From Candidatus Altiarchaeota archaeon (GTDB lineage Archaea > Altiarchaeota > Altiarchaeia > IMC4 > SCGC-AAA252-I15), in NCBI GenBank assembly GCA_043804895.1, contig JAZDIN010000004.1, positions 8,887 through 72,886 of the forward strand: a stretch of 64,000 nt of DNA, written 5' to 3'. The first letter of the stretch is position 1. Each line of letters starts with the position of its first letter. A program made the translations under genes and the position numbers. The notes beneath the pieces were generated by a model. It saw nothing but the letters and a program-made list of their open reading frames with translations, ran no database searches and was not told where the DNA came from. Below are positions 9,109 through 51,111 of this stretch, one piece after another.

Positions 9109-9152
9109 TCACCAGATTAGAACCGACTGATTAATAAGTCTGCCCTCAGATA

Positions 9153-11360: not shown

Positions 11361-11783
11361 ACTACCGAATCGTTCGTCCACGAATTCGCGGACGCTCCTG
11401 TCTTCGTGCGAGTCTTGGTAGAACGGCTTCTTCAGCCACTAAGCGAAATCACTTAGCGCGCCAGCTTTTGATAAGCTTTCCGCCCGCTAGGAGGGGCGAA
11501 ATCTGGGCTTGATGGACTTCCTGGAACTCCTTTTCCATATACTTAACTACGGGTTGCGGAAGCCTATAAATGTGATTTTTATACGCTAAATCTATTATCT
11601 AATTCAATGGAAGGGGGTTCCTACATCTATTGGACGGTTGAAGCAGATGAGTACTCTAGGGGGAATCCTATCCTACAGTTGTTGCTGTTGCTTAGGCTGC
11701 GAGCGTAGATTCGTCTAACATTCTACGGCTCGCATGTGATAAGATGCCAAGATTCTATTTTACACACGGGAGGTATGCGACAT

Positions 11784-11885
11784 CAACGACCAGCGGCCTT
11801 AGCCGCTGGTTTGATAAGCATGAAACCGCAATATTAGATGCATACATTAACCGCCCACCCAAAGGGGGGCGGTTTCATCGCTTAT
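11784..11885 (+). repeat. 102-nt structured element, copy X (divergent copy; its 3' end overlaps the leuA start codon)
   Basis: caacgac-cagcggc-ctta-gccgctg-gtttgataagcatgaaaccg...ccgcccacccaaaggggggcgg-tttcatcgcttat. It has the same length and two-domain fold as copies Y and Z, with compensatory changes. It is flanked by AT (11782-11783) and ends in AT (11884-11885). Confidence 0.75.
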
Positions 11886-13407
11886 GAATCAGTTCTGGTA
11901 CGACAGGAATGTCGAACCTAAGGGGAAGCCGAAGAGGATTCAGGTTTTTGACACCACGTTAAGGGATGGAGAGCAGACGCCGGGAGTCAACTTCACTGCC
12001 GAGGATAAGAAGGAGGTAGCCTCGGCCCTGTCGAAGCTGGGGGTGGACTTTATCGAAGCCGGATTCCCAATCTCAAGCGAGGGGGAGTTCAAGGCAGTTA
12101 AGGGGATAAAGGAGCTGGGACTCAAAAGCAGGATAGTCGGCCTCGCCCGCTGCGTCGGGAAGGACATGGACGCGGCGTTGGACGCTGGCGTAGACATGGT
12201 CCACATTTTCATAGGCACTTCGCCGATTCATAGGGAGTATAAGCTGAAGATGACGAGGGAGGAGATTCTGAAGAGGGCGCAGGAGAGCATACAGTATGTG
12301 AGGGACCACGGGGGTAAGGTGCACTTCAGCCCTGAGGACGCGTGCAGGACTGAGCTCGACTTCCTGAAGGAGGTGTGCGTGATGGCTGAGTCGAATAAGG
12401 TGGAACACATCAACATCCCGGACACAGTTGGCGTTATGACTCCTGCTGCGATGGGATGGCTCATCGCGGAGCTGAAGGGGGTTGTGAAGGTTCCTCTTGC
12501 AGTTCACTGCCACAACGACTTCGGGATGGCAGCAGCGAACACGATAACGGCGGTGATGTCCGGTGCGGTGATACCGCACGTCACAGTCAACGGCCTCGGG
12601 GAGAGGGCGGGCAACGCCGACCTAGAGCAGGTCGTCCTCGGGTGTAAGCTAATACACGGTGTGGAATCGAACGTGAACACGAAGAGAATATGGGAGACCT
12701 CAAGGCTCGTGGAACGGTTGAGCGGCATTAAGGTGATGCCGAACTTCCCGATAGTCGGAGGCAACGCGTTCGCCCACGAGAGCGGAGTCCACGTCCACGG
12801 AGTCCTCGCGAAGGCCGCCACCTACGAGGCCATCAAGCCTGAGATTGTGGGTGCGAAGAGGAAGCTCGTCCTCGGGAAGCTCGTCGGCAAACACGGAGTC
12901 AAGGACAAGCTGAACGCGATGGGGTTGAAGGTCACTGAAGAGCAGGCGAGGGACATAACACAGAAAGTGAAGGACCTAGGAGACAAGGGCAAGAGAGTCA
13001 CAGAGGAAGACCTGGCCGCGATAGCAGAGGACATGGTCGGAAAAGGCTCGAAGAAGGAGAGATTGGTAGAGCTGAAGGATATGACATTGCACATGGAGTA
13101 CGGAGTGAACCCGACAGCCACAGTCGCGCTCCTTGTAAAGGGCAGGGAGAAGTATGCTAGGGCCGTGGGCGTCGGCCCCGTGGATGCGACGTTGAACGCG
13201 ATAAGGGCCGCCCTCGGAGACAAGGACATACAGTTGGACGACTACCACCTCGACGCCATATCAGGAGGGTCAAATGCCCTCGCAGACGTGTCAATCAAAG
13301 TCAGCAAAAACGGGAAAAGCACCATGGCCCGGGGAGTACACGAAGACGTCGTAATGGCATCAGTACTCGCGTTCATCAACGGAGTCAACAGGATAATGAG
13401 AAAATAG
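11884..13407 (+). CDS. leuA: 2-isopropylmalate synthase / (R)-citramalate synthase family (LeuA/CimA)
   Basis: 507 aa. It has the FDTTLRDGEQTPGV catalytic N-terminus, HCHNDFGMA, NGLGERAGNA, and a C-terminal LeuA-dimer regulatory domain. The sequence alone cannot separate LeuA from CimA. Confidence 0.85.
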   Translation: MNQFWYDRNVEPKGKPKRIQVFDTTLRDGEQTPGVNFTAEDKKEVASALSKLGVDFIEAGFPISSEGEFKAVKGIKELGLKSRIVGLARCVGKDMDAALDAGVDMVHIFIGTSPIHREYKLKMTREEILKRAQESIQYVRDHGGKVHFSPEDACRTELDFLKEVCVMAESNKVEHINIPDTVGVMTPAAMGWLIAELKGVVKVPLAVHCHNDFGMAAANTITAVMSGAVIPHVTVNGLGERAGNADLEQVVLGCKLIHGVESNVNTKRIWETSRLVERLSGIKVMPNFPIVGGNAFAHESGVHVHGVLAKAATYEAIKPEIVGAKRKLVLGKLVGKHGVKDKLNAMGLKVTEEQARDITQKVKDLGDKGKRVTEEDLAAIAEDMVGKGSKKERLVELKDMTLHMEYGVNPTATVALLVKGREKYARAVGVGPVDATLNAIRAALGDKDIQLDDYHLDAISGGSNALADVSIKVSKNGKSTMARGVHEDVVMASVLAFINGVNRIMRK

Positions 13408-19400: not shown

Positions 19401-21277
19401 AGTAGGGACATGAATCTCCTCCTTGACGTTTCATCAGATTTTTCATGAGAAGTTAACGTATCGGAATAGGTCAGATTCACCCACCGGATTACGTGGTGGT
19501 TGGCTTTGTTTGCTATTTCCAGAGCACTGTCCTTTGTGTATGATTTATTGGTTTCCTGGTCTACTAGCACCCGCTCTTCACCGAATTTTACCCCGCGCAT
19601 CAGGAGGGCATATTCTGCCTGGATGAAAGACAACACCCTCCGCCTCATCTGCTTCTCATCCAACACGTCCACTGTAGGCCCCTCGCCCCCACCAAATGAG
19701 ACGGAGATTGGCATATTATCGCCACCTTCGTGTTCACGTAATTTAATGGTTGACAACAGCGTCTGCTCAGCCAGGCCTTTCTGCCTCGACTCTAATTGGG
19801 CAAGGTTGTCGATTGTCTCCTGCCTCGCGGCTGTAGCAAATTTAGGTTTCATGTGTTCAGGTATGGCAGCCAGCGACCTCACATAGGTTGGCATGAAAGG
19901 GAGCCCGCTGTTTTCTAGTATCAGTCCAAGGACTTCTGGTCGGCACAATCTGTCATCTACAGTCAACGCTGGTTGGCTGGAGGTGTCTATCTTAACAGCC
20001 GACTCCCAAAGTGCCTTAGCAACAAGTGGTGTCATCCTGTCAGAAAGTAACACGCCCATAAGGCTTGACATGTTCTCCTGGGCTTCTTTCAGGGTTACTG
20101 CCTCCCCATGGTCCTTTAAACGTTCTCCCATACCGTCCAGACCACGCTTTATTGACTTGACATAGTCTTCAGTGTCAGGGGGTAAGGGGGAGTCGACAAG
20201 GGCATCGGTTAGATTAGAGGCCCACCCTATCATTTTTAGTATGGGGACACCCATCCCCCATGCATTCAGCTGCCTGGAGACTTTTAAAATCTCCTTATTT
20301 GCAGCATCCAGTATTTTAAGCTTTTTCTGGAACGTCTTCGTCCCAGCTTCCTCGCCCGCAACATCAGTTAAACAGGCAGCCCATTTTTTCAAGATCTCCT
20401 CTTCACCCATATTCGAGGCGATTGTCCCGCCAAGATCTAGCACAGCCAAGGATGCATTTGTCAAGCTCCCCGCAGAATTTATTCCTACACCGAATAGCAG
20501 GGTTGTATAGAACTTTTTCTCCCCTTCCGCTAATTTTCCCTCATTCAGTAATTCGGACATGCGGGTAATAACACCCTTCCTCAAATCAAATACCTGACTG
20601 GGGTTTAGTGCCTCTTCGCTCTGGTTTGACCAGAATTCGGATGGGCTTACCTCCTGACCAGCGTCATACTTGCCTTTTACTTCCCGCATTTTTTTGACAA
20701 TACCGTGACCTGTCCGTTCAAAACGGAATCCGGCCCTCACCGCATCCAGTGCCTTACCTGCCCCATCTTGACTGAAACCAATCGCTTTCAAAGTATCAAC
20801 TGCCTCGTCTTCTTTCAGAAGGAGTAGAGAGTATGCTGATGGCGCAAACCTAAGCTCATCACCCATGAAAGTCGTGTCCAAGAGTAAATTGAACAACTGC
20901 TTGTCAGGTAGGCCCTTGGTTTTTGCACCCAATTCGAGTATTTCACCAACTATCACCTCGGACATTTTCTTGTCCATTTTTTCGGAGGCGAGGGAGTCGC
21001 TGAAACGCCATAAAAGCCATTTCAGATATTTTGGATTGCTCTGCTCAACTGCCTTGAGTACCTGGTCAAGTTTGACATCTGAATATTTTTCCTTAACCTG
21101 AAATTCGCCTTTTTTCACATAAACCGGTAGCGTGCCCTTAACCGGCCCATCTGCTTTTTCGAATACCTTCTGGATGTAGTCTATTATTCTTTTTCTTGTT
21201 TCCATGACTCCATCCATCAGTGGGGGGAGCCCTCCGCCATCACCCCAATGGTAGTACTTTGTAGGGCCTAGTGGCAT
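13412..21277 (-). CDS. Giant hypothetical protein (2621 aa), cytoplasmic and largely alpha-helical, with four C-terminal winged-helix-like modules
   Basis: A single uninterrupted 7.9-kb ORF. All + strand ORFs across it are short shadow ORFs. I see no signal peptide, TM segment, P-loop or HExxH. The C-terminal 450 aa shows a fourfold pattern ending LRELSRLGVV, LRELRHVGILL, VQSLKKQGLIIPVGTRGYYALT and VDRLEKAKILE. Confidence 0.8.
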   Translation of the reverse strand: MPLGPTKYYHWGDGGGLPPLMDGVMETRKRIIDYIQKVFEKADGPVKGTLPVYVKKGEFQVKEKYSDVKLDQVLKAVEQSNPKYLKWLLWRFSDSLASEKMDKKMSEVIVGEILELGAKTKGLPDKQLFNLLLDTTFMGDELRFAPSAYSLLLLKEDEAVDTLKAIGFSQDGAGKALDAVRAGFRFERTGHGIVKKMREVKGKYDAGQEVSPSEFWSNQSEEALNPSQVFDLRKGVITRMSELLNEGKLAEGEKKFYTTLLFGVGINSAGSLTNASLAVLDLGGTIASNMGEEEILKKWAACLTDVAGEEAGTKTFQKKLKILDAANKEILKVSRQLNAWGMGVPILKMIGWASNLTDALVDSPLPPDTEDYVKSIKRGLDGMGERLKDHGEAVTLKEAQENMSSLMGVLLSDRMTPLVAKALWESAVKIDTSSQPALTVDDRLCRPEVLGLILENSGLPFMPTYVRSLAAIPEHMKPKFATAARQETIDNLAQLESRQKGLAEQTLLSTIKLREHEGGDNMPISVSFGGGEGPTVDVLDEKQMRRRVLSFIQAEYALLMRGVKFGEERVLVDQETNKSYTKDSALEIANKANHHVIRWVNLTYSDTLTSHEKSDETSRRRFMSLLFRIAEPSITQDDKTVLGKIVSFDPSYILRLKPDLREQALSSIGFEDIDAAQKHLTDAFGYSAAVRTHSSQMKETYDRVERYIIVLAAIGEIKEFVQRIEGGEEINHVLKDLRKRTKYWKSDKIIERSIKEEDITARETVRAGMTKIRDSDTVKSAIEVMEEMASKLKAGVPFETVREGVLERTKGIESEAEVKPEDFFHPDTLSEINPAKFMDVVKGVLSLKPEQQTLYSTAVVDVAYDSVIALGSLTDNMTKMREQFHYVLRSSAPVTSLREAISAVNAGEPESPNFIKQLGDAKEANNAFLLSLEELDQWGSIDSMEQMLKWIKEINGAVTKLPAATTNIKNLDGMRLIEREVDKKLAKVQEGRVSLSMNYHFNEFIDRVIKLNRENQPLSAAYWTEGVTGGTGLGDESIDINTLFVKEDQPGEKKDIPAEIYELISKKGNVERQFMVDYVQSLDRIPLDRMDRLDMVVTQEYLDQLERMGPDTPKTVLGFYRIERAQEYLIPTSETGKAFLQTVEAEPEILGPLMDRLLRSAQGRTKLKQPENMPEGSSREAEYALKYFSCLTNPDYRDTLKEMVKRPYVQDYFDLFMDSEPDRRALLASEGTTSLLLRAEETSKGSAAKYLNLLSEHTSAITSDTVSNLIEEEPRTIDHLHALKNAGKLGGILGLLVGGEHRDFFTPENLEKLSRWSGPKNRWQLAEEALRRLGKGGDESVKAQVILTISDDEAKRDNTLREVNSILKVTGVEHLTPLLANQENTITDLTKARDRSWEAEGIHPEERPRVVNMMFGDFDRGVREEFSRIWSDNPKLFASTGEAQQFIKQFKENHSGTKPETVVRALQTLRSAVVGAGRIEVIKGVLNLGQFAQDIREVGRFQLLDGEYFTHLREALTDMTPQNMGEKMAALHGISEGERKFEDTLPQNCDLGLAGWYYNWADRGSIPSADEFLREHHTEIVKLHGKSTAVLEDAFWLKADGREDEFNTLSVVAGLEKTTLENLSSLLRQEEGPFRAAAGAELIKKEKLPEWKTLSRDSERTQRLIDHINAGDWAYAEFILATSYLTKGGGESVDTYLHPNFIPQDKQDQLEFLTADTRKKRQKTAAWHFLSPQLEQLEKDLKSSEPRIDPELIPKQKYRDDLEEHKRISRPILEDIVYQLDVIIGMVEPPKPAPAEPAEDKTLTVGEGATTEEIPAKPLPPQVDVVEAERVIEGVLRIWTLNLGKELGEDAYLRMLDLAKWNNNFRIFMTGKTAARDIEKKIIPAVKRMGGVGESDFQMGFLTHILQNTKNIDECTDLGRIDRGVKLAEEMSEVLSKLPDVELGEDATKESILRAVFLGRPSDFGALTESYGTLNVNMRIRKLQKIDAKDLKKRGIDTTEYFRAIAKQPILIDFLTRKEALDEIQTLDTWERKSSKVWGLVEDYLRKVGSGKHRGLASIDALKNLNRIGAEKLYGQTGSLPPTMLIDSRHLKDVNKTMVVVGKLNKEGSISYVEYTRILGKDPEEEDEGEVSTTPSTTASSTHKMTRKELMQKDMILMDGKVFANPYKRRPQPDFPHPFHAFQRYVNAETINNRRLSYVEEELAKAVSHFTGHLEIKKLAELCSKHPVLGVIYPDTEAGRIEGIKADLRELSRLGVVTDPETSPSVSDGCLLRDIKSDDGKTTSWDQTNENVNKMRLERLLLNVKDDKLEAARLIINIISNKPNHTVGRDDLVTDCLTNGCPGLPETKDVMNPYVRDLLRELRHVGILLEADHETDAISPHILKEKPRSYEDHRDVHILKDMYEITVPNPAMVLHPALEDREAEIEERISRFPNPYAARAVLKVISNVLLVGQGIMKREGINKEVAQDLGIDESKVNNVVQSLKKQGLIIPVGTRGYYALTKKFPGDENLENLAQETLGKILSEEVRGTAETKDIMVKIIETLSGHRLNLWHTIRQRHLERLCMHLYWQNPSENEDLPHTPKEIIDVVDRLEKAKILEQQPDMEARTYWVSDEMLSGPRKY

Positions 21278-30027: not shown

Positions 30028-30231
30028 TCAACCCTCCTTCCTCACTATAACGTATCCCCTCCCATCCAGCCAGTGGTGGAACTGCCAGGCCATGCACTTC
30101 CTGCACTCGGCCCTCGTCCTCTCATACTCGACCGAACCCTCCTTATGATGGTTCATCTTAAGCTGCACAGGACATTTAATGTCCCTACAGTACTCCCTCT
30201 TCTGATAGTCAACGTAACCTGAGATAGGCAT
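30028..30231 (-). CDS. Small Cys-rich (putative Zn-binding) protein, 67 aa. The track ORF extends to 30327 through a repeat.
   Basis: MPISGYVDYQKREYCRDIKCPVQLK...AECRKCMAWQF. The upstream 32 codons of the track ORF (MDFMLSNISEGTRLTIPPKRSKELCPQLYLSK) are encoded by repeat module M3, which recurs at 45365-45426. I therefore take the start as the ATG at 30231. Confidence 0.5.
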   Translation of the reverse strand: MPISGYVDYQKREYCRDIKCPVQLKMNHHKEGSVEYERTRAECRKCMAWQFHHWLDGRGYVIVRKEG

Positions 30232-30242
30232 TTTCGAGAGAT

Positions 30243-30304
30243 ATAGCTGAGGGCATAACTCTTTAGACCTCTTAGGGGGTATAGTGAGCCTTGTGCCCTC
30301 AGAT
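30243..30304 (-). repeat. Hairpin module M3 (62 nt), copy B
   Basis: Its reverse complement aligns with 45365-45426: atctgagggcacaaggc...ttatgccctcagctat. The terminal arms ctgagggca and tgccctcag pair. Confidence 0.75.
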
Positions 30305-30351
30305 ATATTCGAGAGCATAAAATCCAAGTCAAGAAGGTTATGCTCTCGACT
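30305..30351 (-). repeat. Hairpin module M1 (47 nt), copy B
   Basis: The reverse complement, agtcgagagcataaccttcttgacttggattttatgctctcgaatat, has a perfect 12-bp stem (tcgagagcataa / ttatgctctcga). It aligns with 45264-45310. Confidence 0.75.
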
Positions 30352-30397
30352 ATAATATAGTAAGGACGGTTACGTTAAAAATAGGCGACCACAGCCT

Positions 30398-30452
30398 GTG
30401 ACTGAGAGCCGCTGCTCTCAGACACATTCAGCAACCATTGGCTGCTGAATAT
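30398..30452 (+). repeat. Hairpin module M2 (55 nt), copy B
   Basis: gtgactgagagccgctgctctcagacacattcagcaaccattggctgctgaatat forms two hairpins joined by the conserved acacattc. It aligns with 45311-45364, with compensatory changes in both stems. Confidence 0.75.
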
Positions 30453-30554
30453 CAACGACTGCCGGCTAAAGCCGGCAGTTTGATACGCCGGAAACTACCT
30501 AGTCGAGAGGACTCCCTGAGGGTGTCCCCTGAAGGGGACAGTTTCCGAGCGTAT
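30453..30554 (+). repeat. 102-nt structured element, copy Y (intergenic, directly abutting M2)
   Basis: caacgactgccggctaaagccggcagtttgatacgccggaaact...gtcccctgaaggggacagtttccgagcgtat. The first 45 nt or so and the last 25 nt or so are near-identical to copy Z. It is preceded by TAT and ends in TAT. Confidence 0.8.
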
Positions 30555-30766
30555 AAAGGCTGCGGTATTCTCGGATTCAGCAAGTATGCACTCACGCAAC
30601 ATACTGCCGAATCCTCGAACGGGACGACCCCCATATTTTCCTCAGTCTAGGTGGTCTTAGCTTCGTTCTATTAAAGATAGCGTAAGATTGTTAGGAGATT
30701 CCAGGATATACCTATTGATGGTTTTGATTTACCCTACCAACAGAAAAGGACAGCGATCAACAGAAA

Positions 30767-31339
30767 CTATGTTCTCATTAGAAATAGGAGTAGGAGTATT
30801 GGTGAAAAAATTATTATGACAAGACAAATATCCCCCAGAACATATGCAAGGAACGATCGCCAAAAGCTTATTTGATGCAATTTACTTAGCCCAATGATTT
30901 GAAGCACTCCCATATATGCGTAGGATATGTGACTCACATAGGGTATGCTCATCAACAAAAGGTGGGGGGTCGCACCATAACTGAATGCTTTATAAGTCTC
31001 CGAAAAGTTACCACTCCCACCTAGAATTCTTGTAAAAACGTGTATCAACCCCGATGTGAAGAACGTGGCGATAAAAAATACAATATATAAAAAAGAGGTG
31101 TTAATTAACACGATTATAGTGACGTGACCACTACTGCTGAAATTTTGGACAATCACAGTTACTACAAAGTCGATCAACATAGCGATCGGCAATAAAACAA
31201 ACAAATAGCTGACGGCTTTTTTTATACCCTCCTCTGAATGAATCTCAGTCCAACAAGTGTTTGGTTCAAACAATATTGATTTAACTCTTGGAATAAAAGC
31301 CATAACAGTAGAGTGCTTTGCTTTGCCTTTAGTTTTCAC
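30767..31339 (-). CDS. Yip1-domain-like polytopic membrane protein
   Basis: 190 aa, or 178 aa from MAFIPRV at 31303. A short N-terminal segment is followed by 5 TM helices, and the pattern resembles the Yip1/DUF1282 family. AT-rich. Confidence 0.5.
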   Translation of the reverse strand: MKTKGKAKHSTVMAFIPRVKSILFEPNTCWTEIHSEEGIKKAVSYLFVLLPIAMLIDFVVTVIVQNFSSSGHVTIIVLINTSFLYIVFFIATFFTSGLIHVFTRILGGSGNFSETYKAFSYGATPHLLLMSIPYVSHISYAYMGVLQIIGLSKLHQISFWRSFLAYVLGDICLVIIIFSPILLLLFLMRT

Positions 31340-31546
31340 GATAAATACTTGTGTTCTTATATTTTAGTACCTGTGTGTTTATGAGGTGTTTCTAAATGAG
31401 TTTTCAGCACGATCTCCTGAAACTCCGCTATTCTCCCTTTGCTAGAATAGTCCGGCTACTTCTTACCGCCTTTTTCCCATCCTCCGTCACTCACTTTTTA
31501 TCCTCTTAGGATAGAGGTTAAAAACGATTATTTCATTTTCTTGAGG

Positions 31547-31594
31547 TTCCCCCACCTAAATCGAACAGAGTGTTCTAGTCCCGGTCGGGGCGAA
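31547..31594 (+). repeat. R-family repeat, copy R3 (3' part only)
   Basis: ttcccccacctaaatcgaacagagtgttctagtcccggtcggggcgaa aligns with the 3' half of R4. Confidence 0.7.
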
Positions 31595-31714
31595 GTTATC
31601 CAATTCCCTAATATATGTCGGTTATGACGTCCTTAGCTTGTACTGTCTGAGCCTCCTGAGAGATTTGAACACTTTGTACGAGGTAATGTTTTTACCCCTA
31701 CAAAATGCCTAATT

Positions 31715-31757
31715 TGTAGTCATATTTTTGTAGTCATATTTAAACTTGTAGTCATAT
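31715..31757 (+). promoter_or_regulatory. Three direct copies of tgtagtcatat immediately upstream of the Fic ORF
   Basis: Copies lie at 31715-31725, 31729-31739 and 31747-31757. The 9-mer gtagtcata is the 3' arm of the R-family hairpin, and its complement tatgactac overlaps the Fic stop at 32705-32713. Confidence 0.6.
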
Positions 31758-31758
31758 A

Positions 31759-32709
31759 GTGTTATTGATGCACATTGAGGTTCAGGAGCGCGGCGGGAAG
31801 AAGTTCATTTATGTGGCTCATTCCTTCCGTCATGGGGGTAAAGTTAGGAAGTTGAGGAAATATCTAGGAGTCAACCTTAGTGGAAAGGAGATATCTTCTT
31901 TGAGGCCTGCTGCTGAGAAGGCGCTGATGTGGCGGGCTGAGGCGAGTAAGAGCATCCGCGACCCCCTGAAGACTGTTTTGTCTCCTCAGGAGATGGCGTC
32001 TATCAAGTCCTTGATTGGAAAGCACGACATTAAGATAAGCCATCTGTCTGAAAAACAGTGGGTTAGATTCACCGAACTCTTCGCATATGATACTAACGCC
32101 ATAGAAGGGTCAACAGTGGATTTGGCCGAAGTCAAAGGCATATTGGAGAGAGATAAGTGGCCTGACAAGGCGAAGGATGAGATTGCTGAGACATATGGGG
32201 TGTCTGACGCAGTCAAGTTGATTAGGAGGACTAAAGAACACCTGTCAATCGAGTTGATAATGGAACTACACAAAATTGTTTTCAAGAACTCTAAAGGGTT
32301 CGCGGGTAGGCTGCGCCCACCTGGAGTAGAAGTAGTGGTCACAAACCGTTTTGGAGAGATCATCCATAGAGGCGCACCCCAAAAACATGTCTTGAAACTT
32401 CTAAAGGAACTCGTGGAATGGTACGCAGAAAACAAGAAACGATACCACCCTATTGTCCTTGCAGCTGTCGTCCACAACCACTTCGAAAACATCCACCCAT
32501 TTGAGGATGGAAACGGGAGGGTTGGAAGACTCCTATTGAACAACATACTACTTAAGCACGACCTCCCCCCAGTTAACATTGAATTAAAAAACAGAAAAGG
32601 GTACTACGCTTCTTTACAAGCGTACGAAAAGGCGGGTAATCTCAGACCAAGTATAGAGTTGGTATTAACGTCCTATGACAGACTCAAGAAAACCCTGAGG
32701 AGTATATGA
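31759..32709 (+). CDS. Fic-domain protein (AMPylase / Fido family)
   Basis: Carries the canonical Fic motif HPFEDGNGRVGRLL. The ATG at 31768 (MHIEVQERGG) is the more likely start; the track starts at the GTG at 31759. Confidence 0.85.
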   Translation: MLLMHIEVQERGGKKFIYVAHSFRHGGKVRKLRKYLGVNLSGKEISSLRPAAEKALMWRAEASKSIRDPLKTVLSPQEMASIKSLIGKHDIKISHLSEKQWVRFTELFAYDTNAIEGSTVDLAEVKGILERDKWPDKAKDEIAETYGVSDAVKLIRRTKEHLSIELIMELHKIVFKNSKGFAGRLRPPGVEVVVTNRFGEIIHRGAPQKHVLKLLKELVEWYAENKKRYHPIVLAAVVHNHFENIHPFEDGNGRVGRLLLNNILLKHDLPPVNIELKNRKGYYASLQAYEKAGNLRPSIELVLTSYDRLKKTLRSI

Positions 32710-32789
32710 CTACATGCCCCAGAGGCGTAGTCATACAGAGTTTCCCCCACCTAAACCGAACAAACTGTTCGAGTCCCGATCGGGGCGAC
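32708..32789 (+). repeat. R-family repeat, copy R4 (best-preserved copy)
   Basis: tatgactac (32705-32713) and gtagtcata (32727-32735) form the hairpin. Then come tttcccccacctaaa, the hairpin cgaaca-aac-tgttcg, and gagtcccgatcggggcgac followed by a T6 run. Confidence 0.8.
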
Positions 32790-32930
32790 TTTTTTCAAGG
32801 GGGTACTAGTTCTGTTATAATTTATTTTTAGCTTATTTGGTTAGGGTTCATTTGTTAATGTGAGGGGGTTTGAACCTTAAAGTTGTAGTCTTGATGTAAT
32901 TACCGCTTGCCAGCAGTGCAAACACGCCTG

Positions 32931-34520
32931 TTAGGAGTGGATGATGTTGGCTGCCAAAACCCCGAAGCCCACCATTGTGCAGATTATTATTGTTAAGACG
33001 GTTAAAGTCACCAGCGCAATTCCCAGTATTATGATTTTTACCTTGTTTATTCTTTTTTTAGGGGGTAAAAGGTAGTAGGTACCGATGACAGTTGTCAGAA
33101 ATATCGATACACCGAAGACGATCGTCGCAACCACAAAAACCAATCCCCCGAATATCATGGTGTTAGTGTTTGGACCGTTGGGGACCTCAACGATCGCAAA
33201 TGTGCTCAAATGAGGAGCAAGCGCAGCATAACGGCATATGTTGCTGTCACAACTAATCTTCCAACTAGGAAGTTTTTCCCAGGATTTTTTATCCTCATTA
33301 TATATTGCAACAGCAACCCCTTTTGCATTAGCAGCGTCTGAGGCTTGCTTACCTAAAAGAAGTTTAGTAAATGAATCCCAGCTATAACCTTGAGGCTTAT
33401 ATTTGGCAGCATCAGATTTTGTTTCTAAGTATTTAAATAAATCTTGCTGGGATTTAAGCTGCTCTGCAGTAACCTTAGACTCAGATTCAGAGTAGGCATA
33501 ACTATGTCTTGTCGTTGAGAATTCTATAAGTGCCTGCGAATAATCTTCATAAGGCTGATCATTATTCTTAGTGTTCACAACAAGCATCTTATCAACCTGC
33601 TCGCCATTTTTACTAGGATAATCAGGAGCTCTGTTTGCGCCCCTATAATTCTGCCAATCTTTTCCATAAATAACAGAAACATCCATGGTAGCATCATCAG
33701 TAGGTTGTTTTAAAGTAGTGGTAATCCGGGTGACTGTTGCACCCTCAGGCAATGTGGCGCTTACATCGTCCCCTGATTTTCTATTTTTTATATTATATTC
33801 TACATTAATCTTTGGCAAAGATTCTCCAATACCTTGCTGTTTTAAAGTGTCTGCTGAAACTGAATTTCCATCTTCATCTGAAATCTTTCCAGCAGGCAAT
33901 TGAACTGCTTGCCCCACCCAGTCATCTATTGCAGAGCCAATAATTTGCTGAGCCTGAGCTATTTGTTGTTCCTGTTCTTCCTGAGATGCAATTCTCTTTA
34001 TGCACCGGCTATTTTCCCAGGAGCAGATATAGAATGTGGCGCAACTGTTGAGGCATTTCTGCTTTGCATCATCTTGTTGCTGCGATTGCGTCGTGGTGGT
34101 TCTGGGTTGGGTTGTTGTGGTCTTAAACAAGGTAGTGCTAGGCGGTTGCGGCTGTGTTGAGGTGGTGGTCCTGATCCTTTTTATGCACTGGTGATTCTCC
34201 CAGGAACAGACATAGAATGATGCGCAGCTGTTGATGCATTTAGTCCGATCATAATTTTCATCATAGGTGCAGCCCCCGGTTATGCTGTACCTGGCCCCAT
34301 ATTCTGCCGCACCAGCCCGACACTGCGCAACACCGTTAGCAACCAATTGTTGACATGAAGCTTGGTCAGGGAAATATTTCGGCCCCCAGCATTCCTTGTA
34401 ACCCTGTATAAAACAACAGCCTTCGAATTTCCACGGCCCCTCTCCAGAAACGGCAGAAAAACCTCCACTCATTAAAAGTCCAAACACAACTATGATGGAA
34501 AAAAGTTTTTTCTGTTTCAT
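32931..34520 (-). CDS. Secreted / membrane-anchored Cys-rich surface protein
   Basis: Signal peptide MKQKKLFSIIVVFGLLMSGGFSAVSG. The module C.NSCA.FY.CSWEN..CIKRI is duplicated, separated by T/Q-rich linkers (TTTSTQPQPPSTT, TTTTQPRTTTTQ). There are two C-terminal TM helices. Confidence 0.7.
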   Translation of the reverse strand: MKQKKLFSIIVVFGLLMSGGFSAVSGEGPWKFEGCCFIQGYKECWGPKYFPDQASCQQLVANGVAQCRAGAAEYGARYSITGGCTYDENYDRTKCINSCASFYVCSWENHQCIKRIRTTTSTQPQPPSTTLFKTTTTQPRTTTTQSQQQDDAKQKCLNSCATFYICSWENSRCIKRIASQEEQEQQIAQAQQIIGSAIDDWVGQAVQLPAGKISDEDGNSVSADTLKQQGIGESLPKINVEYNIKNRKSGDDVSATLPEGATVTRITTTLKQPTDDATMDVSVIYGKDWQNYRGANRAPDYPSKNGEQVDKMLVVNTKNNDQPYEDYSQALIEFSTTRHSYAYSESESKVTAEQLKSQQDLFKYLETKSDAAKYKPQGYSWDSFTKLLLGKQASDAANAKGVAVAIYNEDKKSWEKLPSWKISCDSNICRYAALAPHLSTFAIVEVPNGPNTNTMIFGGLVFVVATIVFGVSIFLTTVIGTYYLLPPKKRINKVKIIILGIALVTLTVLTIIICTMVGFGVLAANIIHS

Positions 34521-34609
34521 ATCTGCTTTCTAGCCACAATTACCTATTAAACTACACTATTAAAAACAATCTTAATCTCATGAAACTGTGAAACCACATT
34601 ATGACATAT

Positions 34610-34714
34610 GACTACAAAAACCTAAGAGGTAGTCATACAAACTCAAATGTCACCAGTTTGCGTCTATCGTTTTCTTTGGGGATTCGAACAAACAATTCGA
34701 GTCCCAATCGGGGC
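34610..34714 (+). repeat. R-family repeat, copy R5 (hairpin and 3' core conserved, middle diverged or expanded)
   Basis: tatgactac (34607-34615) and gtagtcata (34629-34637), then cgaacaaacaattcgagtcccaatcggggc ending 1 nt before the stop of the class II aldolase gene. Confidence 0.7.
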
Positions 34715-36555: not shown

Positions 36556-38895
36556 TCAGACGACTGAAGGCCCGTTTTGCTTTTGCAGTTCCCTGAAGAA
36601 GGAGTCTATCTTCCCCAAGTCAACGCCATCAGAGAAGTACTTATCAAACAACGGCTCAACCTGGCCTTTGGCGCCGTGATAGTCCGAATCGCCCCCATGT
36701 TGCCAGGAGTCATATCCAGCTGATTTGAAACGGTCATGGTGAAGCATTCTGTCTACTGTATACCCCTCCTGCCACTTAGGGATGCCATACTCCTGGATTT
36801 TTGGTTCAAGCTGCAGGCGCATGGTATCCCGGGCGAGCATATCCCTCAACTCCTCGGGGCTCTTATGTTCCCCGGCAGAACTGAGTTCCCTGAAGAATGC
36901 ATCTATCTTTCCCAGGTCGACTCCGTCAGCGAAGTATTTATCAAACAGCGGGTCTACCTGGGCTTTGGCGCCGTGATAATCAAAACCTTCCGGACCCTGC
37001 CAGCGGGGTTTACCTGTTTTCAGGCCCGTATAATCTGTGGACTGGAACTTCTCGACTATCATCTTGTCGACTACATACTCCTTTTGCCACTGAGGGATTT
37101 TATAGTCCTGTATGAATTTTTCAAGTTGCAAATGCATGGTTTCGTGGACTATCGTGTTCTTCAACTCCTTTGGAGTTTTCAACTCCCCATTAGAATTGTA
37201 GAGGTTATCAAGTATCTGGCGAGTCTTCAGGTTATAACTACCGCCCACCCCATAGTCAGTTAGAACGATTTCAGAGGGGAGTACAACCTTTTCCCCGAAT
37301 ATACCGGCTAAATCCTTGAAGTATTTGCCCAGGGTCGCCCAATATTCCTGCGTTATCTTTGATTCCTCAGCTAAGAACTTGTTAGAGTCATGCTCTTTCT
37401 TTATTGCAGCCTCTATTTCAGGCGTTGTCGACTGCTTACTAACTCCGGAAGGCAGCTTAAGGCCTAAACCTTTGCCATATACTTCTTCTTTCCCGAATAC
37501 TTCGGCCAATTCGTCGATGTATTCGCCCAAATTCTGCCCATACTGCTGCATCATCTTTGATTCAGCATCCAAGAATCTGTTGGGAGTATACTCGCCTTCA
37601 AGAGGCAGGTTGGGAGGTGGGTCCCAGAAGTATCTGTTCTGGGCGTAGAGCATGTTCTTTACAACCCCTATTTGACTTTCTAAATCTGATTTAAAATTAA
37701 GCCCAACTGCAGCTTCGTTCTTTCCCTGGGGATTGTTGATGCCCGCAAACTCGGCGAAGTTTTTGTCCTTCCTGTGCTCGAACAGCTCTACGATGCCGAT
37801 AAGACCTTTATTGCCGTCTACGTCATACGGTCTGCAAAGCGTCCCGACCAGTTGGTCGACACCTATCCCCTTCTCCTTCGCGTTGTCAACCACGGACTCC
37901 CACATCTTAAGGCCTAGGAAGTATAGGGGGTGATCCTCACGATAGTTTAACTGCGGTTCCAAACCCAGTTTCCGTATGATTGTCTCGTCCATGTATGATG
38001 CGAAGCCCTCATGGGTGAGGCTCGAGTCGGAGAGGCCGTTGGGGTGGTCCTTGTTTAGCCGGACTATTGTATGTTCGTCCTCCAGTATTATCCTCTTTTC
38101 ACTCCGGAGTTCACTGTAGATTGAACGGACCCGCCTATCATCAAGTTTGACTTCAGACCCTTCAAAGTTCTTCGGTACGTTTTTTTTATTTTCCGCCTCT
38201 ATTGCGTTATTCCGGATGTGGCTTCCCTCATGGATAAACCCGTCAAGGACGCCAACCAATGGCTGTTCCTCATTAGGCCTGTAGAAGACAGCCTCCCCGT
38301 CTGCAGCTACACCGTGTTTCGCTGCGAATTCTGCTGTCCGGTCACGCGTACCCCGGATACTTTGGGCTATGTCGGTCAGGCCGTATTTTTCATTCCCAAG
38401 GAGTTCGGCCATGTCTGTTAGCCGCTGGAGGAAGGTGCTGTTGATTACCTCTCCTCCACTATGGCTTGCTTTTTCGCCTTCCGCATACCATAGTCTTCTA
38501 AGATTATCCTTGTCTTTGAGCATTCTCTCTAGGGTCCCTTTGTATGATTCTCCTTCCTTCATTTCCCGTATGAGTCTAACATGGAATAGAGAAACGTGGA
38601 AATCCTCTTTTGAAGCCGTGTACATGCCGATATCCAAGCCGCTTTCATCCTTGAGGAGGCGATTTGCTATGGCAGGGATGACCTCCAATGCCTGCTCACG
38701 TGGTAGACAGAGTATATTCTTAACCAATTCTGGTAATTTGTCCGTAGGAGTCGTATCTGGAGAAGTAACTCGCTGTATGGCATCAGCAATCTTCAATTTC
38801 CTGCTCCTCTCATCCAGTTCATCGATTAGGGGGTTTCTAGCTGTTATATTGGAATCACCCTCTTTATGGGGGTTTTCTATTACTTTCGGGCTCAT
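36556..38895 (-). CDS. Large hypothetical protein with two HExxH motifs (putative Zn-metallopeptidase-like) and a C-terminal tandem duplication
   Basis: 779 aa, with FIHEGSHI near aa 230 and IVHETMHL near aa 588. The last ~190 aa are two ~95-aa repeats (PKELKNTIVHETMHLQLEKFIQDYKIPQWQ...DYHGAKAQVDPLFDKYFADGVDLGKIDAFFREL versus PEELRDMLARDTMRLQLEPKIQEYGIPKWQ...DYHGAKGQVEPLFDKYFSDGVDLGKIDSFFREL). The duplication is also visible in the DNA (36560-36880 versus 36880-37200). Confidence 0.7.
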   Translation of the reverse strand: MSPKVIENPHKEGDSNITARNPLIDELDERSRKLKIADAIQRVTSPDTTPTDKLPELVKNILCLPREQALEVIPAIANRLLKDESGLDIGMYTASKEDFHVSLFHVRLIREMKEGESYKGTLERMLKDKDNLRRLWYAEGEKASHSGGEVINSTFLQRLTDMAELLGNEKYGLTDIAQSIRGTRDRTAEFAAKHGVAADGEAVFYRPNEEQPLVGVLDGFIHEGSHIRNNAIEAENKKNVPKNFEGSEVKLDDRRVRSIYSELRSEKRIILEDEHTIVRLNKDHPNGLSDSSLTHEGFASYMDETIIRKLGLEPQLNYREDHPLYFLGLKMWESVVDNAKEKGIGVDQLVGTLCRPYDVDGNKGLIGIVELFEHRKDKNFAEFAGINNPQGKNEAAVGLNFKSDLESQIGVVKNMLYAQNRYFWDPPPNLPLEGEYTPNRFLDAESKMMQQYGQNLGEYIDELAEVFGKEEVYGKGLGLKLPSGVSKQSTTPEIEAAIKKEHDSNKFLAEESKITQEYWATLGKYFKDLAGIFGEKVVLPSEIVLTDYGVGGSYNLKTRQILDNLYNSNGELKTPKELKNTIVHETMHLQLEKFIQDYKIPQWQKEYVVDKMIVEKFQSTDYTGLKTGKPRWQGPEGFDYHGAKAQVDPLFDKYFADGVDLGKIDAFFRELSSAGEHKSPEELRDMLARDTMRLQLEPKIQEYGIPKWQEGYTVDRMLHHDRFKSAGYDSWQHGGDSDYHGAKGQVEPLFDKYFSDGVDLGKIDSFFRELQKQNGPSVV

Positions 38896-44719: not shown

Positions 44720-45234
44720 TCTAACCCGACAACCCCACCGCTGTTGAAAATTGCATTGAATGTCGCCTCCCTGACAGCAGCCAGGTACTTCTCCCGTTCG
44801 GCTGTCTTCTCTATCTGGAGAGCGTACAACGCGTCAGTGACCCCGGCATCGATTATGAGGGCTTCTATGTTCGCCAGCATCTCAATGTACAGTTTACGCT
44901 CTATCGAGGCCTTCTGCATCACTGAGAGAGGCCTTAAACCCTCACCCAAAGCGGAGGGTATGAGGGAGACGCTGAGTATCTCCGCGTCGTCTGTGCTGGA
45001 GCCTGAGCCTGCGAGCGTTGTGCCGTACTTCTTCCACTCGAGGATGGATAGGTTGTTGACGCCGAGATTCTTCAGAGACTTCAACACCTCATCCAGGTTC
45101 TCGCTCCTAATCTGGAGGCTCACCTCCCTACCGACGAGAGAGAACTGGAGTATGCCCTCATGGGGTATGCTCTTGAATAGGTCGCACGAGTCCCCTGAGA
45201 ATGAGCCGCCCAAGGCGACCTTATGGCCTTTCAC
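44716..45234 (-). CDS. Hypothetical protein (172 aa), overlapping the start of the GT-C-like gene by 4 nt
   Basis: The ORF fills the interval. No motif recognised. Confidence 0.5.
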   Translation of the reverse strand: MKGHKVALGGSFSGDSCDLFKSIPHEGILQFSLVGREVSLQIRSENLDEVLKSLKNLGVNNLSILEWKKYGTTLAGSGSSTDDAEILSVSLIPSALGEGLRPLSVMQKASIERKLYIEMLANIEALIIDAGVTDALYALQIEKTAEREKYLAAVREATFNAIFNSGGVVGLE

Positions 45235-45263
45235 GCTATCCTATAGGGGGTGCAGGGTATTAT

Positions 45264-45310
45264 ATTCGAGAGCATAACCTTTTTGACTTGGATTTTATAC
45301 TCCCGAATAT
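45264..45310 (+). repeat. Hairpin module M1 (47 nt), copy A
   Basis: attcgagagcataacctttttgacttggattttatactcccgaatat. Its stem has 2 mismatches relative to copy B. It is preceded by tattat. Confidence 0.75.
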
Positions 45311-45364
45311 GTGGCTGAGACATATGTCTCAGACACATTCGACAGCCAATAGGCTGTCGCATAT
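45311..45364 (+). repeat. Hairpin module M2 (54 nt), copy A, lying between M1 and M3
   Basis: gtggctgagacatatgtctcagacacattcgacagccaataggctgtcgcatat, with hairpins ctgagac/gtctcag and cgacagcc/ggctgtcg. In the other locus M1 and M3 are directly adjacent. Confidence 0.8.
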
Positions 45365-45426
45365 ATCTGAGGGCACAAGGCTTATGATACCCCCTAGGAA
45401 TTCTAAAGAATTATGCCCTCAGCTAT
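45365..45426 (+). repeat. Hairpin module M3 (62 nt), copy A
   Basis: atctgagggcacaaggcttatgataccccctaggaattctaaagaattatgccctcagctat, with terminal arms that pair. Confidence 0.75.
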
Positions 45427-45440
45427 AAATCCGGCCGACT

Positions 45441-50363: not shown

Positions 50364-50732
50364 ATGTTCTACGGGAGGAATATACCAGCAGCGTTGATGA
50401 GAAGTGGGTTAGAGGATAGGCTGCTTAGGGTGTGCGAGGAGGAGGACTTGTCCTACCTGGCATTGTTCGGCTCCTATGCTAGGGGGAAGGCGAAACCAAG
50501 GAGCGATTTGGACATAGCGATAGAGTATGAGAAAGGCGCGGATAAGACACTCTTTGACTTGATTTCATTGGAGGAGAGGTTGCGGAGGCCTTTCAGGAGG
50601 AAAGTCGACCTTGGGATTCACGATACCATAAGCCCGCACGTGATAGATAACGTCAGGAAGGACATGAGGGTCATATATCAACGACTGCCGGCTAAAGCCG
50701 GCAGTTTGATACGCCGGAAACTGCCTAGTTGA
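50364..50732 (+). CDS. Minimal nucleotidyltransferase (MNT antitoxin); its C-terminus is extended by insertion of element Z
   Basis: LFGSYARGKAKPRSDLDIAIE matches the GS...D.D NTase motif. The last 17 aa, QRLPAKAGSLIRRKLPS, are encoded by the 102-nt element and recur in the spurious ORF 30438..30650. Confidence 0.75.
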   Translation: MFYGRNIPAALMRSGLEDRLLRVCEEEDLSYLALFGSYARGKAKPRSDLDIAIEYEKGADKTLFDLISLEERLRRPFRRKVDLGIHDTISPHVIDNVRKDMRVIYQRLPAKAGSLIRRKLPS

Positions 50733-50780
50733 GTGGAGTACATGCAACTGTCCCTTGGAAGGGACAGTTTCCGAGCGTAT
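50679..50780 (+). repeat. 102-nt structured element, copy Z (inserted at the MNT/HEPN junction)
   Basis: caacgactgccggctaaagccggcagtttgatacgccggaaact...gtcccttggaagggacagtttccgagcgtat. It is flanked by TAT (50676-50678) and ends in TAT (50778-50780). Removing it restores an overlapping gene pair. Confidence 0.85.
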
Positions 50781-51111
50781 GAGAAACGATAAGGCCTACA
50801 TCAAACACATATATGATACGATAATTGATTTGGAGGGGTTCACAAAGGACGCGACCCTAACGGATTTCCTTAAAGACACGGAGAAACAATACGCTGTGAT
50901 ACGGGCCTTTGAGGTCATAGGCGAGGCCTCCAAGAACATAAGCGCTGAATTCAAAAAGAAGCATCCTGGTGTGCCGTGGACGAAGATGTCTGCGATGAGA
51001 GATAATTTGATACACGGATACTTCGGAGTCAACCTTGAGTTGGTCTGGAGCACAGTGAAGGTGAACATACCAGAGATAAAGAACAGGATAAAAGCGCTGA
51101 AGGCGAGGTGA
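50779..51111 (+). CDS. HEPN-domain protein (DUF86 type), toxin partner of the MNT
   Basis: MRNDKAYIKHIYDTI... with the R(x)4-6H motif RDNLIHGY. The track ORF starts 24 nt upstream, inside the element. Confidence 0.75.
   Translation: MRNDKAYIKHIYDTIIDLEGFTKDATLTDFLKDTEKQYAVIRAFEVIGEASKNISAEFKKKHPGVPWTKMSAMRDNLIHGYFGVNLELVWSTVKVNIPEIKNRIKALKAR

Follow-up and report, generated by a model that had tools for sequence, protein, structure and literature searches.

Tiny hairpin modules piled up beside TAT in an Altiarchaeota-labelled genome and their likeness to non-autonomous IS200/IS605-type elements

The closest described counterparts of the sequences considered here are the PATEs of Haloquadratum walsbyi, derivatives of IS200/IS605 (IS1341-type) elements that have near-terminal palindromes, no inverted terminal repeats and no target duplication, carry a 4-5-nt targeting sequence at their 5' side, can be as small as 52 bp and take part in mobile-element conglomerates (PMC3119063). 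Two further members of the IS200/IS605 family are instructive with respect to target choice: IS606 of Helicobacter pylori inserts beside 5'-TTAT or TTTAT (PMC3154945), and the cleavage sites of IS608 are chosen via base pairing with guide sequences situated beside its hairpins (PMC3201880). Bacterial REPs, finally, are 20-50-nt palindromes that follow a conserved tetranucleotide, usually GTAG, and in BIMEs REP and iREP units alternate with linkers between them (PMC8266576).

How does the cluster at positions 30243-30554 of the window, i.e. of the whole 64-kb stretch of DNA that was analysed, compare with these systems? It is an accumulation of very small mobile DNA hairpins without genes, inserted beside TAT in the genome of an uncultured archaeon, and represents a lineage-specific case of a known kind of genomic parasite and not a new kind of system. 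With moderate confidence, we consider it probable that its modules are small, PATE-like non-autonomous transposable elements of 47-109 nt that are moved in trans as single-stranded DNA. They resemble PATEs in the absence of terminal inverted repeats (in the modules named Y and M2), in the palindromes near both ends, in having no transposase-coding capacity, in the short targeting oligonucleotide on the 5' side and the conserved terminal oligonucleotide on the 3' side, and in the frequency with which elements land in or beside one another; this likeness rests on architecture and not on sequence similarity. Unlike PATEs, whose host is a haloarchaeon, they reside in an Altiarchaeota-labelled MAG, their target and their 3' terminus are both TAT, giving head-to-tail chains, and no cognate IS200/IS605 element is known; moreover, the left junction lies only 2-5 nt from the left hairpin, whereas this distance is longer at the 5' end of PATEs and IS608. 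Insertion 3' of a short AT-rich oligonucleotide and subterminal hairpins are shared with IS606 and IS608, which, in contrast to the 47-109-nt modules, measure 1.5-2 kb and, as carriers of both tnpA and tnpB, are autonomous.

The pneumococcal BOX and the Neisseria Correia elements are likewise small intergenic repeats in which modules can be combined, and some repeats of this type insert at TA-containing targets and alter promoters. Unlike the modules described here, they have terminal inverted repeats or boxA/B/C modules and do not obey a TAT rule, and they are unrelated to them in both sequence and host.

Module layout and the TAT target

The order and coordinates that a first-pass annotation had given for the cluster (hereafter locus A) were borne out when the window sequence was re-read. 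M3a, a 62-nt hairpin module on the - strand (30243..30304) ending in CAGCTAT, lies 11 nt upstream of the ATG of a small Cys-rich gene (30028..30231, - strand; 67 aa, no Pfam hit), which is kept in relatives as a 69-aa gene upstream of a DeoC-type aldolase. M3a adjoins M1a (30305..30351, - strand), a 47-nt hairpin module that ends in GAATAT and has TATTAT as its left flank. A 46-nt spacer follows (30352..30397); its larger part, at about 30352-30385, is native sequence close to the promoter and has homology to the relatives' intergenic region between Aldolase_II and the small gene, and 30386-30397 is of unassigned origin. The + strand then carries M2a (30398..30452), a 55-nt two-hairpin module with GAATAT as its end and CCT as its left flank, and Y1 (30453..30554), a 102-nt two-hairpin element that indeed starts directly after the terminal TAT of M2a and itself ends in GCGTAT. 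Beyond it lies a candidate fifth module, Z (30555..30636, + strand), a single-copy imperfect hairpin that ends in CATAT and whose fold is weak (DNA z = -1.3).

The recurrence of M1, M2 and M3 at 45264-45426 (locus B), noticed at the same time, is equally real: M1b (45264..45310, + strand, left flank again TATTAT) and M3b (45365..45426, + strand, end CAGCTAT) enclose the 54-nt M2b (45311..45364, + strand), which starts directly after the terminal TAT of M1b and stops exactly where M3b begins. Copy-to-copy similarity is far above chance (BLAST E 1e-15 to 1e-25), amounting to 92% over 53 nt for M1 (E 2e-15), 90% over 67 nt for M3 (E 1e-16) and 88% over 106 nt for Y (E 1e-25). The peptide ISEGTRL.IPP..SKELCPQL that ORFs 30028..30327 and 45201..45428 have in common is spurious, as had been suspected, and a 12-mer at 9141-9152, formerly taken for a fragment of the M3 arm, is no better than a chance match (BLAST E 0.84) and lacks a partner with which to form a hairpin.

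Two extra copies of Y occur in the window, at 50679-50780 and, in a divergent form, at 11784-11885. The first, Y2 (50679..50780, + strand, 102 nt), sits at the overlap of an MNT gene and a HEPN (HepT-like) gene in such a way that the last 17 codons and the stop of the MNT-type nucleotidyltransferase ORF (50364..50732, + strand) come from Y2; the ATG of the HepT-like (HEPN) toxin gene (50779..51111, + strand) spans its right junction, the start codon having been rebuilt from the terminal AT of Y2 and the next G. The divergent copy, Y' (11784..11885, + strand, 102 nt, left flank CAT), is placed between the Shine-Dalgarno sequence GGAGGT (11769-11774) and the ATG (11884) of a leuA-like gene.

Tabulation of the flanks within the window, a check proposed with the first-pass annotation, revealed a strong enrichment of TAT on the left. 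It is the left flank of eight of the ten modules, of six of the eight elements when M1-M3 is counted as one (P ~3e-9, on a small sample) and of three of the five flanks that are not contributed by a neighbouring module (P ~1e-4, likewise on a small sample), against an expected rate of 2.2% of intergenic trinucleotides; both M1-M3 copies are preceded by TATTAT, and the CCT of M2a is the sole exception to a TAT/AT left-flank rule. Read as direct repeats, AT brackets 9/10 modules and TAT 8/10, which is compatible with a 2-3-bp target duplication and equally explained by an intrinsic terminus. Because Y' and M2a both end in TAT with CAT and CCT, respectively, on their left, the terminal TAT appears to be at least partly intrinsic to the element. 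Seven of the eight elements are oriented along the + strand, which is weakly consistent with strand-specific insertion.

Each module, with its one or two hairpins, sits 3' of (T)AT and, since its own 3' end is TAT, recreates the target at its right junction, where a later element can land. With the end of the element equal to its target, head-to-tail mosaics such as M1|M2|M3 at locus B and M2|Y|Z at locus A follow, and this 'terminus equals target' rule alone suffices to explain mosaic repeat arrays.

Could the mosaics instead consist of REP/BIME-type repeats served by a domesticated RAYT (TnpA-REP), as the first reading of the cluster had proposed? Extragenic palindromes arranged in mosaic clusters, M-type stems with a common GAG(A/G)GC core and a likely HUH single-strand chemistry, the same as in the PATE-like explanation, would all fit (PMC8266576, PMC2817692). 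Neither the tetranucleotide and size typical of REPs nor the alternating organisation was found, however. No conserved GTAG-type tetranucleotide precedes the palindromes, and the 5' starts of the modules, A(T/G)TCGAG, ATCTGAG, GTG(A/G)CTGAG and CAACGAC, have no tetranucleotide in common; the modules measure 47-102 nt versus 20-50 nt for REPs; and rather than alternating as REP/iREP, the three modules of locus B run head-to-tail and abut at TAT with no linker, while locus A is made up of two co-oriented blocks. Insertions at the overlap of two genes and in the interval from a Shine-Dalgarno sequence to the start codon, an archaeal host (the REPs of PMC8266576 are bacterial only, archaea being unmentioned) and the absence of a RAYT from the window also speak against a kinship that we judge highly improbable.

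Filled and empty sites

Three comparisons of filled with empty sites show, at the level of sequence, that the modules are insertions, and thereby back the earlier suggestion of nested or serial MITE-like insertion. The first concerns Y2. Homologous nucleotidyltransferases are 108 aa long and end in ...MRVIYEK(R); deletion of 50679-50780 in silico restores VIYEKR-stop as the end of the MNT protein, and the resulting DNA aligns without a gap to the MNT/HEPN junction of a homolog (L012). The second is internal to the window: at locus A, the M1 end GAATAT adjoins ATCTGAGG of M3 without interruption, and at locus B the 54 nt of M2 stand exactly in this M1|M3 junction. In the third, the small gene is preceded by TATATTATCTCTC, and M1-M3 is missing, in two relatives whose aldolases are 90% (L010) and 85% (L001) identical, and the counterpart in the window reads TATATTAT|M1-M3|ATCTCTC, so that the restored site of locus A has one AT more than either relative. 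When the three modules of locus B are removed, the - strand reads TTTATAATA, with 23 nt between it and the GTG of a downstream 172-aa gene, and this restored site looks like a TATA box, judging by its letters; the orthologous empty site is found only in a distant relative (L014, 65% identity), with a terC gene in between.

The same comparisons bear on how many independent elements there are. The claim that all modules are independent units can be demonstrated for M2 and Y only, as the two loci agree in the order and orientation of M1 and M3. Because M1 and M3 always co-occur, they may form a single 109-nt two-hairpin element into which M2 was inserted at locus B. M1 and M3 are each a near-perfect palindrome, and the ends of M1-M3 are therefore imperfect inverted repeats; set against each other, M1 and M3 display three compensatory pairs and 92% paired cells.

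A simple segmental duplication of loci A and B, followed by inversion and rearrangement, would account for the fact that within the window M1, M2 and M3 occur at these two loci only. Yet similarity ends at the module ends plus the TATTAT target, the flanks being unrelated; M2 is present at the M1|M3 junction of one locus and absent from the other; Y is found as three copies in three unrelated contexts; and relatives have empty sites. Flanks and empty sites thus already contradict this scenario, to which we give virtually no credence.

What makes such insertions bearable for the host? Signals that span the target are rebuilt at the right junction, as is the case for the ATG codons of the HEPN and leuA-like genes and for the TATA-like boxes. 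Owing to this regeneration, a start codon, and apparently also a TATA-like box, can accept an insertion at its very position.

Conserved hairpins and the element ends

Folding and a check of the termini bore out that every module forms hairpins and ends in TAT. RNA folds of the four locus A modules score z = -3.4 to -7.6 versus dinucleotide shuffles, those of the locus B copies of M1 and M3 are weaker (z ~ -2.9), and single-stranded DNA folds of Y, M2 and M1-M3 reach z = -5.6 to -8.2. Y, M2 and M1-M3 each contain two hairpins, the first 2-5 nt from the left end and the last 2-8 nt from the right. The hairpins are conserved through compensatory changes: both stems differ between M2a and M2b in a compensatory manner that keeps the pairing, and all three Y copies are exactly 102 nt long, align ungapped and have 11 compensatory base pairs, with compensatory changes in both hairpins of Y', which is only ~66% identical to Y1 and nonetheless structurally intact.

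Conservation of this kind may raise the thought that the modules, and Y especially, are functional structured RNAs copied around the genome, acting in 5'-UTR translational control or as small RNA genes. The strong covariation, the fixed length and the old age of Y' with its intact structure agree with this, as do the ends of two of the three Y copies, which coincide exactly with a start codon in sense orientation; there, the A and U of AUG would be locked up in the terminal helix ATACGC/GCGTAT. However, a single-strand transposase needs hairpin conservation equally. Moreover, Y2 destroys the native C-terminus of MNT and uncouples the toxin-antitoxin pair, which looks like damage, both genes next to locus B run antisense to its modules, no gene lies downstream of Y1, and Rfam offers no match even at permissive thresholds: with the Rfam 15 covariance models, the whole window gave no hit at the gathering score, and permissive searches returned only sub-threshold matches to generic hairpins. 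An RNA function of this kind is very unlikely in our opinion.

Conventional MITEs are a more serious contender, if still a fairly unlikely one. Here a DDE transposase, recognising inverted repeats at the termini, would move double-stranded DNA and leave a 2-3-bp AT-rich duplication at an AT, TA or TAT target, as with IS630/Tc1-mariner-type or IS5-type MITEs. The extra AT in the restored locus A site is what a 2-bp duplication leaves, and the AT and TAT direct repeats around most modules point the same way, as do the imperfect inverted repeats at the ends of M1-M3, even though these ends, being similar hairpins, are ambiguous in this respect. By contrast, terminal inverted repeats are lacking in Y and M2, the ends of which are different, non-complementary hairpins. 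Junctions read in each element's own orientation have TAT and never ATA, which one would not expect if insertion were symmetric and the target no palindrome, and M2a and Y' retain their terminal TAT irrespective of what stands on their left. The ~58 ORFs of the window encode no DDE transposase according to Pfam scans.

Mobilisation in trans, as single-stranded DNA, by a HUH transposase of the Y1 class and IS200/IS605 type is what we consider probable, the modules then being counterparts of haloarchaeal PATEs. At the right end of Y, hairpin 2 is preceded on its 5' side by ATA(C/A)GC, which pairs with GC(G/T)TAT, one pair having changed in a compensatory manner, the terminal TAT being paired with an invariant internal ATA; these two trinucleotides may act like a cleavage site and its guide. 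At the left end, only CAAC (4 nt) separates the junction from hairpin 1, the stem of which would reach into the flanking AT, and the left flank pairs with TTGATA, a candidate guide 3' of hairpin 1. IS608, on the other hand, has TTAC as its left and TCAA as its right site with guides 5' of each hairpin, whereas the modules have TAT at both sites and a putative left guide that follows its hairpin on the 3' side. This left-end geometry, CAAC spacing included, counts against the IS200/IS605 reading, and so do the dissimilar left and right hairpins of both Y and M2, as the ends of IS200/IS605 elements are usually alike, the possible 2-3-bp target duplication (AT or TAT) to which the extra AT at locus A may point, and the tiny copy numbers of two to three per family in 64 kb.

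Perhaps the modules represent a class of single-strand hairpin transposons that is restricted to this lineage, has not been described before and has a 3' terminus equal to the target TAT. Its enzyme or its end recognition would depart from the model set by IS608, the left guide lying 3' of the hairpin; its head-to-tail arrays would be self-seeded; and the rebuilding of start codons and TATA-like boxes would let it persist in core expression signals. Co-option of Y as a leader of 102 nt, placed between the Shine-Dalgarno sequence and the AUG of the leuA-like and HEPN genes, may be part of this picture. We regard this as unlikely and retain the IS200/IS605-type explanation.

Searches for relatives and genomic consequences

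The statement that the window holds no transposase or RAYT stood up to Pfam scans of its ~58 ORFs, among which there was no Y1 transposase, TnpB or RAYT either; the mobilising enzyme is presumably encoded outside these 64 kb. Covariance models of Y and M1/M3 detected no extra copies in the window, and the Y model none in the relatives' loci L001-L003 and L010; BLAST of all modules versus loci L001-L004 produced no match. An exact 26-mer of Y and a degenerate 22-base Y skeleton had 0 matches in a genome contig collection, patterns for Y, M2, M1 and M3 had 0 in viral contigs, blastn of the cluster versus plasmids and phages gave no match, and the five matches of one Y 20-mer pattern in metagenome contigs were all unrelated chance occurrences in low-GC contigs. 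As these collections contain no homolog, no autonomous partner with matching ends is known. A literature search on TnpB in Altiarchaeota found none.

Several other candidates were tried and rejected. An archaeal bulge-helix-bulge intron requires two 3-nt bulges flanking a 4-bp helix, formed by the intron start and the 3' exon; inspection of the Y2 and Y' junctions revealed that the start CAACGAC cannot pair with the 3' exons GAGAAAC and GAATCAG, and predicted folds put both junctions at helix ends. CTGAGAG/CTGAGGG does not fit the CUGANGA core of a hammerhead-like ribozyme, for which Rfam was negative as well. The termini are not TC...CTRR, as a Helitron-like insertion into an AT dinucleotide would have them. 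For the 'D' repeats, a tRNA-fragment origin was dismissed in that ARAGORN reported none and a T-arm cannot be drawn.

With these modules, an Altiarchaeota-labelled lineage is shown to contain active hairpin transposons of tiny size, and if their enzyme is an IS200/IS605 TnpA accompanied by TnpB, the TAT motif would predict the TAM of the associated RNA-guided nuclease. There are also practical consequences for annotation, since the repeats create spurious ORFs and have given a nucleotidyltransferase in the deposited MAG a false 17-residue tail. Finally, sites prone to rearrangement are marked by the repeats, among them a 4.3-kb low-GC island and a missing terC.

Module copies and their empty sites

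On re-reading the sequence, the cluster coordinates and module order reported in the first-pass annotation were recovered: locus A comprises, on the + strand, reverse-complemented M3 (30243-30304) and M1 (30305-30351), a 46-nt spacer, M2 (30398-30452) and Y (30453-30554), and locus B carries M1 (45264-45310), M2 (45311-45364) and M3 (45365-45426), all on the + strand. Copy-to-copy similarity is far above chance, within-window BLAST giving 92% over 53 nt for M1 (E 2e-15), 90% over 67 nt for M3 (E 1e-16) and 88% over 106 nt for Y (E 1e-25), whose second copy, Y2, lies at 50679-50780. A hairpin scan of intergenic regions revealed a third, divergent copy, Y' (11784-11885), and covariance models of Y and of M1/M3, run with filters off, detected no further members in the window. 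Y is thus present three times, M1, M2 and M3 twice each, and Z (30555-30636), a weak module candidate that ends in TAT and folds poorly, once. The spurious peptide said to be common to two ORFs is present; the 12-mer at 9141-9152, earlier read as a fragment of the M3 arm, is no better a match than expected by chance (E 0.84) and lacks a partner arm.

The nearest relatives retrieved were L010 (a 3.6-kb JGI contig, aldolase 90% identical), L001-L004 (aldolase 85% identical) and L014 (MarC 65%), and the modules are absent from all of these loci. Y2 separates the gene of an MNT-type nucleotidyltransferase from that of a HepT-like (HEPN) protein. The MNT ORF (50364-50732) encodes 122 aa, the final 17 of them within Y2; its homologs are ~108 aa long and end in ...MRVIYEK(R). 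Removal of 50679-50780 leaves GTC ATA TAT GAG AAA CGA TAA, i.e. VIYEKR and a stop, and the DNA so restored gives an ungapped alignment over the junction with the homologous MNT/HEPN pair of L012. The source MAG is deposited with a 122-aa nucleotidyltransferase (P0121), a length that takes in the 17-residue Y2-encoded tail, so the public record holds a mis-extended protein. Locus A is likewise an empty site for M2, because M1 (...GAATAT) directly abuts M3 (ATCTGAGG...) there, whereas at locus B the 54-nt M2 sits exactly between the last base of M1 and the first of M3. As for M1-M3 itself, the small Cys-rich gene is conserved and the sequence upstream of it reads TATATTATCTCTC in L010 and L001, where the window has TATATTAT, the M1-M3 pair and then ATCTCTC; most of the locus A 'spacer' (~30352-30385) is native intergenic sequence. 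Outside the modules the two M1-M3 copies have nothing in common except the left flank TATTAT, their right flanks being unrelated, which excludes segmental duplication. The cluster is real, the module insertions are well supported, and the earlier reading of nested, MITE-like insertion is upheld by the empty-site comparisons for Y2, M2 and M1-M3.

Are the modules independent units, as first proposed? This holds for M2, which is missing from the M1-M3 junction of locus A, and for Y. M1 and M3 always occur as a pair, with one order and one relative orientation at both loci, and may be a single 109-nt element of two hairpins, as M2 and Y each are.

Exact and degenerate Y patterns had 0 matches in 185,579 species-representative genomes, Y, M1, M2 and M3 patterns had 0 in viral contigs, blastn against plasmids and phages returned no match, and scanning metagenome contigs with the Y pattern gave chance matches only. 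Within the limits of these collections, the module families appear to be lineage-specific.

Conserved folding and tolerated insertion sites

Each module forms one or two hairpins, as originally described. Compared with dinucleotide shuffles, the RNA folds of the four locus A modules reach z = -3.4 to -7.6, those of locus B M1 and M3 being weaker (z about -2.9), and the DNA folds of Y, M2 and M1-M3 reach z = -5.6 to -8.2. The three Y copies, each exactly 102 nt, align without gaps, and in 11 of 34 predicted pairs both sides have changed with pairing kept; such pairs occur in hairpin 1, in hairpin 2 along its long outer stem, and in a terminal helix in which the end, GC(G/T)TAT, pairs with an internal ATA(C/A)GC. 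M2a and M2b (the locus A and B copies) differ in both stems and keep both hairpins. M1 and M3 are homologous hairpins with A..GAG.GCA.AA...TTAT.C.C.C...TAT in common; three of their pairs are compensatory, and pairing extends to 92% of cells, versus 31-46% when the partner is slid.

Could Y instead be a functional RNA? A start codon falls exactly at the end of two of its three copies, the HEPN ATG (50779) and the leuA-like ATG (11884) each taking its AT from the final two bases of Y and its G from the base that follows, with the Shine-Dalgarno sequence (GAGGGT, 50666-50671; GGAGGT, 11769-11774) moved 102 nt away by Y. This reading is nevertheless improbable, given that Y2 damages the MNT protein and that Y has no Rfam match. 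That two Y copies should each sit precisely in the gap from a strong Shine-Dalgarno sequence to its start codon (11769-11886; 50666-50781) has P about 0.01 among tolerated sites, a rough post hoc estimate. Three further readings, as a bulge-helix-bulge intron, a small ribozyme or a Helitron-like element, were rejected on inspection.

Without its modules, locus B reads TTTATAATA at 23 nt ahead of a 172-aa gene's GTG, and aligns with TTAAATAA in L014; the restored site would resemble a TATA box. In a comparison of 45235-45440 with L014 10592-11533, relatives have terC between marC and the 172-aa gene; terC is absent from the window, and the M1-M2-M3 array fills the short leftover spacer. Just upstream of marC, L014 (9883-9981) has two strong adjacent hairpins with a common GAATACTGCG; this pair may represent a small repeat of unrelated origin or a regulatory structure of that genome.

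Target, termini and a candidate mode of transposition

All ten modules end in TAT, as the first-pass annotation stated, and eight of them also have TAT as left flank, the exceptions being Y' (CAT) and M2a (CCT). Only 2.2% of the trinucleotides in intergenic DNA are TAT, and the proposed flank bias, tabulated within the window, is borne out with M1-M3 counted as one element (6/8, P about 3e-9) and with flanks supplied by a neighbouring module left out (3/5, P about 1e-4). The right-hand TAT is kept even beside a non-TAT left flank and pairs with an invariant internal ATA; being always present and so paired, it is at least partly the element's own. As terminus and target coincide, each insertion makes a fresh target at its right end, which accounts for the head-to-tail chains M1-M2-M3 and M2-Y-Z, and a signal spanning the target is restored at the right junction, as with the HEPN and leuA-like ATGs and, by inference, the TATA-like box of locus B. 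This identity, together with the tolerance of insertions at start codons and promoter-like sites, is the notable feature of the system. The flanking AT commonly joins the left hairpin stem (TATCAA/TTGATA in Y, ATGTG/CACAT in M2, TATA/TATA in M1).

A direct AT repeat surrounds nine of ten modules, and locus A, once restored, carries an AT more than either relative, so that a 2-3-bp target duplication may have occurred. A DDE-type MITE with terminal inverted repeats (TIRs) and AT/TAT duplication would suit M1 and M3 but not Y and M2, and is rather unlikely as a general explanation. The suggested likeness to REP/BIME mosaics did not survive, as neither a GTAG-type motif nor alternating orientation with linkers was found, and such an origin is very doubtful.

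The absence of TIRs from Y and M2, a non-palindromic target in constant orientation relative to the element and conserved hairpins near both ends together constitute the signature of IS200/IS605-type elements, which transpose by single-strand 'peel and paste', and of their deletion derivatives. In keeping with the first description, no transposase was matched in the window (~58 ORFs, Pfam scans), and trans-mobilisation by a Y1 HUH transposase whose gene would lie in another part of the genome is, by a modest preference, the favoured explanation. The palindrome-associated transposable elements (PATEs) of Haloquadratum lack inverted terminal repeats and target duplication, bear near-terminal palindromes and a 4-5-nt targeting sequence on the 5' side, can be as short as 52 bp and are often joined with other mobile elements into conglomerates (PMC3119063); IS606 inserts beside TTAT or TTTAT (PMC3154945). 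In IS608, cleavage sites are chosen by base pairing with hairpin-adjacent guide sequences (PMC3201880); here, by contrast, only 4 nt separate the left junction from the hairpin, and the candidate guide lies 3' of it. The two hairpins of Y are unlike each other, as are those of M2. This dissimilarity, the left-end geometry, the possible short duplication and the failure to match a transposase in the window are weak points of the IS200/IS605 reading. The modules are best classed among the known small, non-autonomous hairpin transposons (PATE/IS200-IS605-like), as a lineage-specific addition.

Neighbouring repeats and genes

The M2-Y-Z cluster stands at the edge of a 4.3-kb low-GC island (30637-34714; about 0.42-0.43) that lies between the Aldolase_II stop codon and the small Cys gene's native promoter and encodes a Yip1-domain protein, Fic and a 529-aa secreted/membrane protein. 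The island is itself an insertion, because the two bordering genes are 38-42 nt apart in L001 and L010. Another dispersed repeat family, 'D', is represented by five copies (5436-5529, 7304-7398, 31530-31599, 32700-32794 and 34602-34714), all on the + strand, at gene boundaries within low-GC stretches. Its - strand forms two hairpins, one an inverted pair of GTAGTCATA(T), a 9-mer with ten occurrences in the window, three of them direct copies immediately upstream of Fic. 'D' has no Rfam match, is absent from the relatives' loci and lacks a TAT left flank; it may mark cassette boundaries or bind protein.

Upstream of Y' lies an unusually long (423-nt) non-coding stretch (11361-11783); within it, what may be the decayed right half of a Y-like element (11466-11513; TTTGATAAGC, a hairpin and GCTTGAT) was not picked up by the Y covariance model. 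A 2621-aa ORF (13412-21277, - strand) has near-zero Pfam signal, with sub-threshold winged-helix matches near its C-terminus only. Internal direct repeats (36587-37003, 120 nt, 79%; 37282-37581, 102 nt, 71%) occur in a 779-aa gene that has no Pfam match here and whose L001 counterpart carries Thioredoxin_4/DSBA domains.
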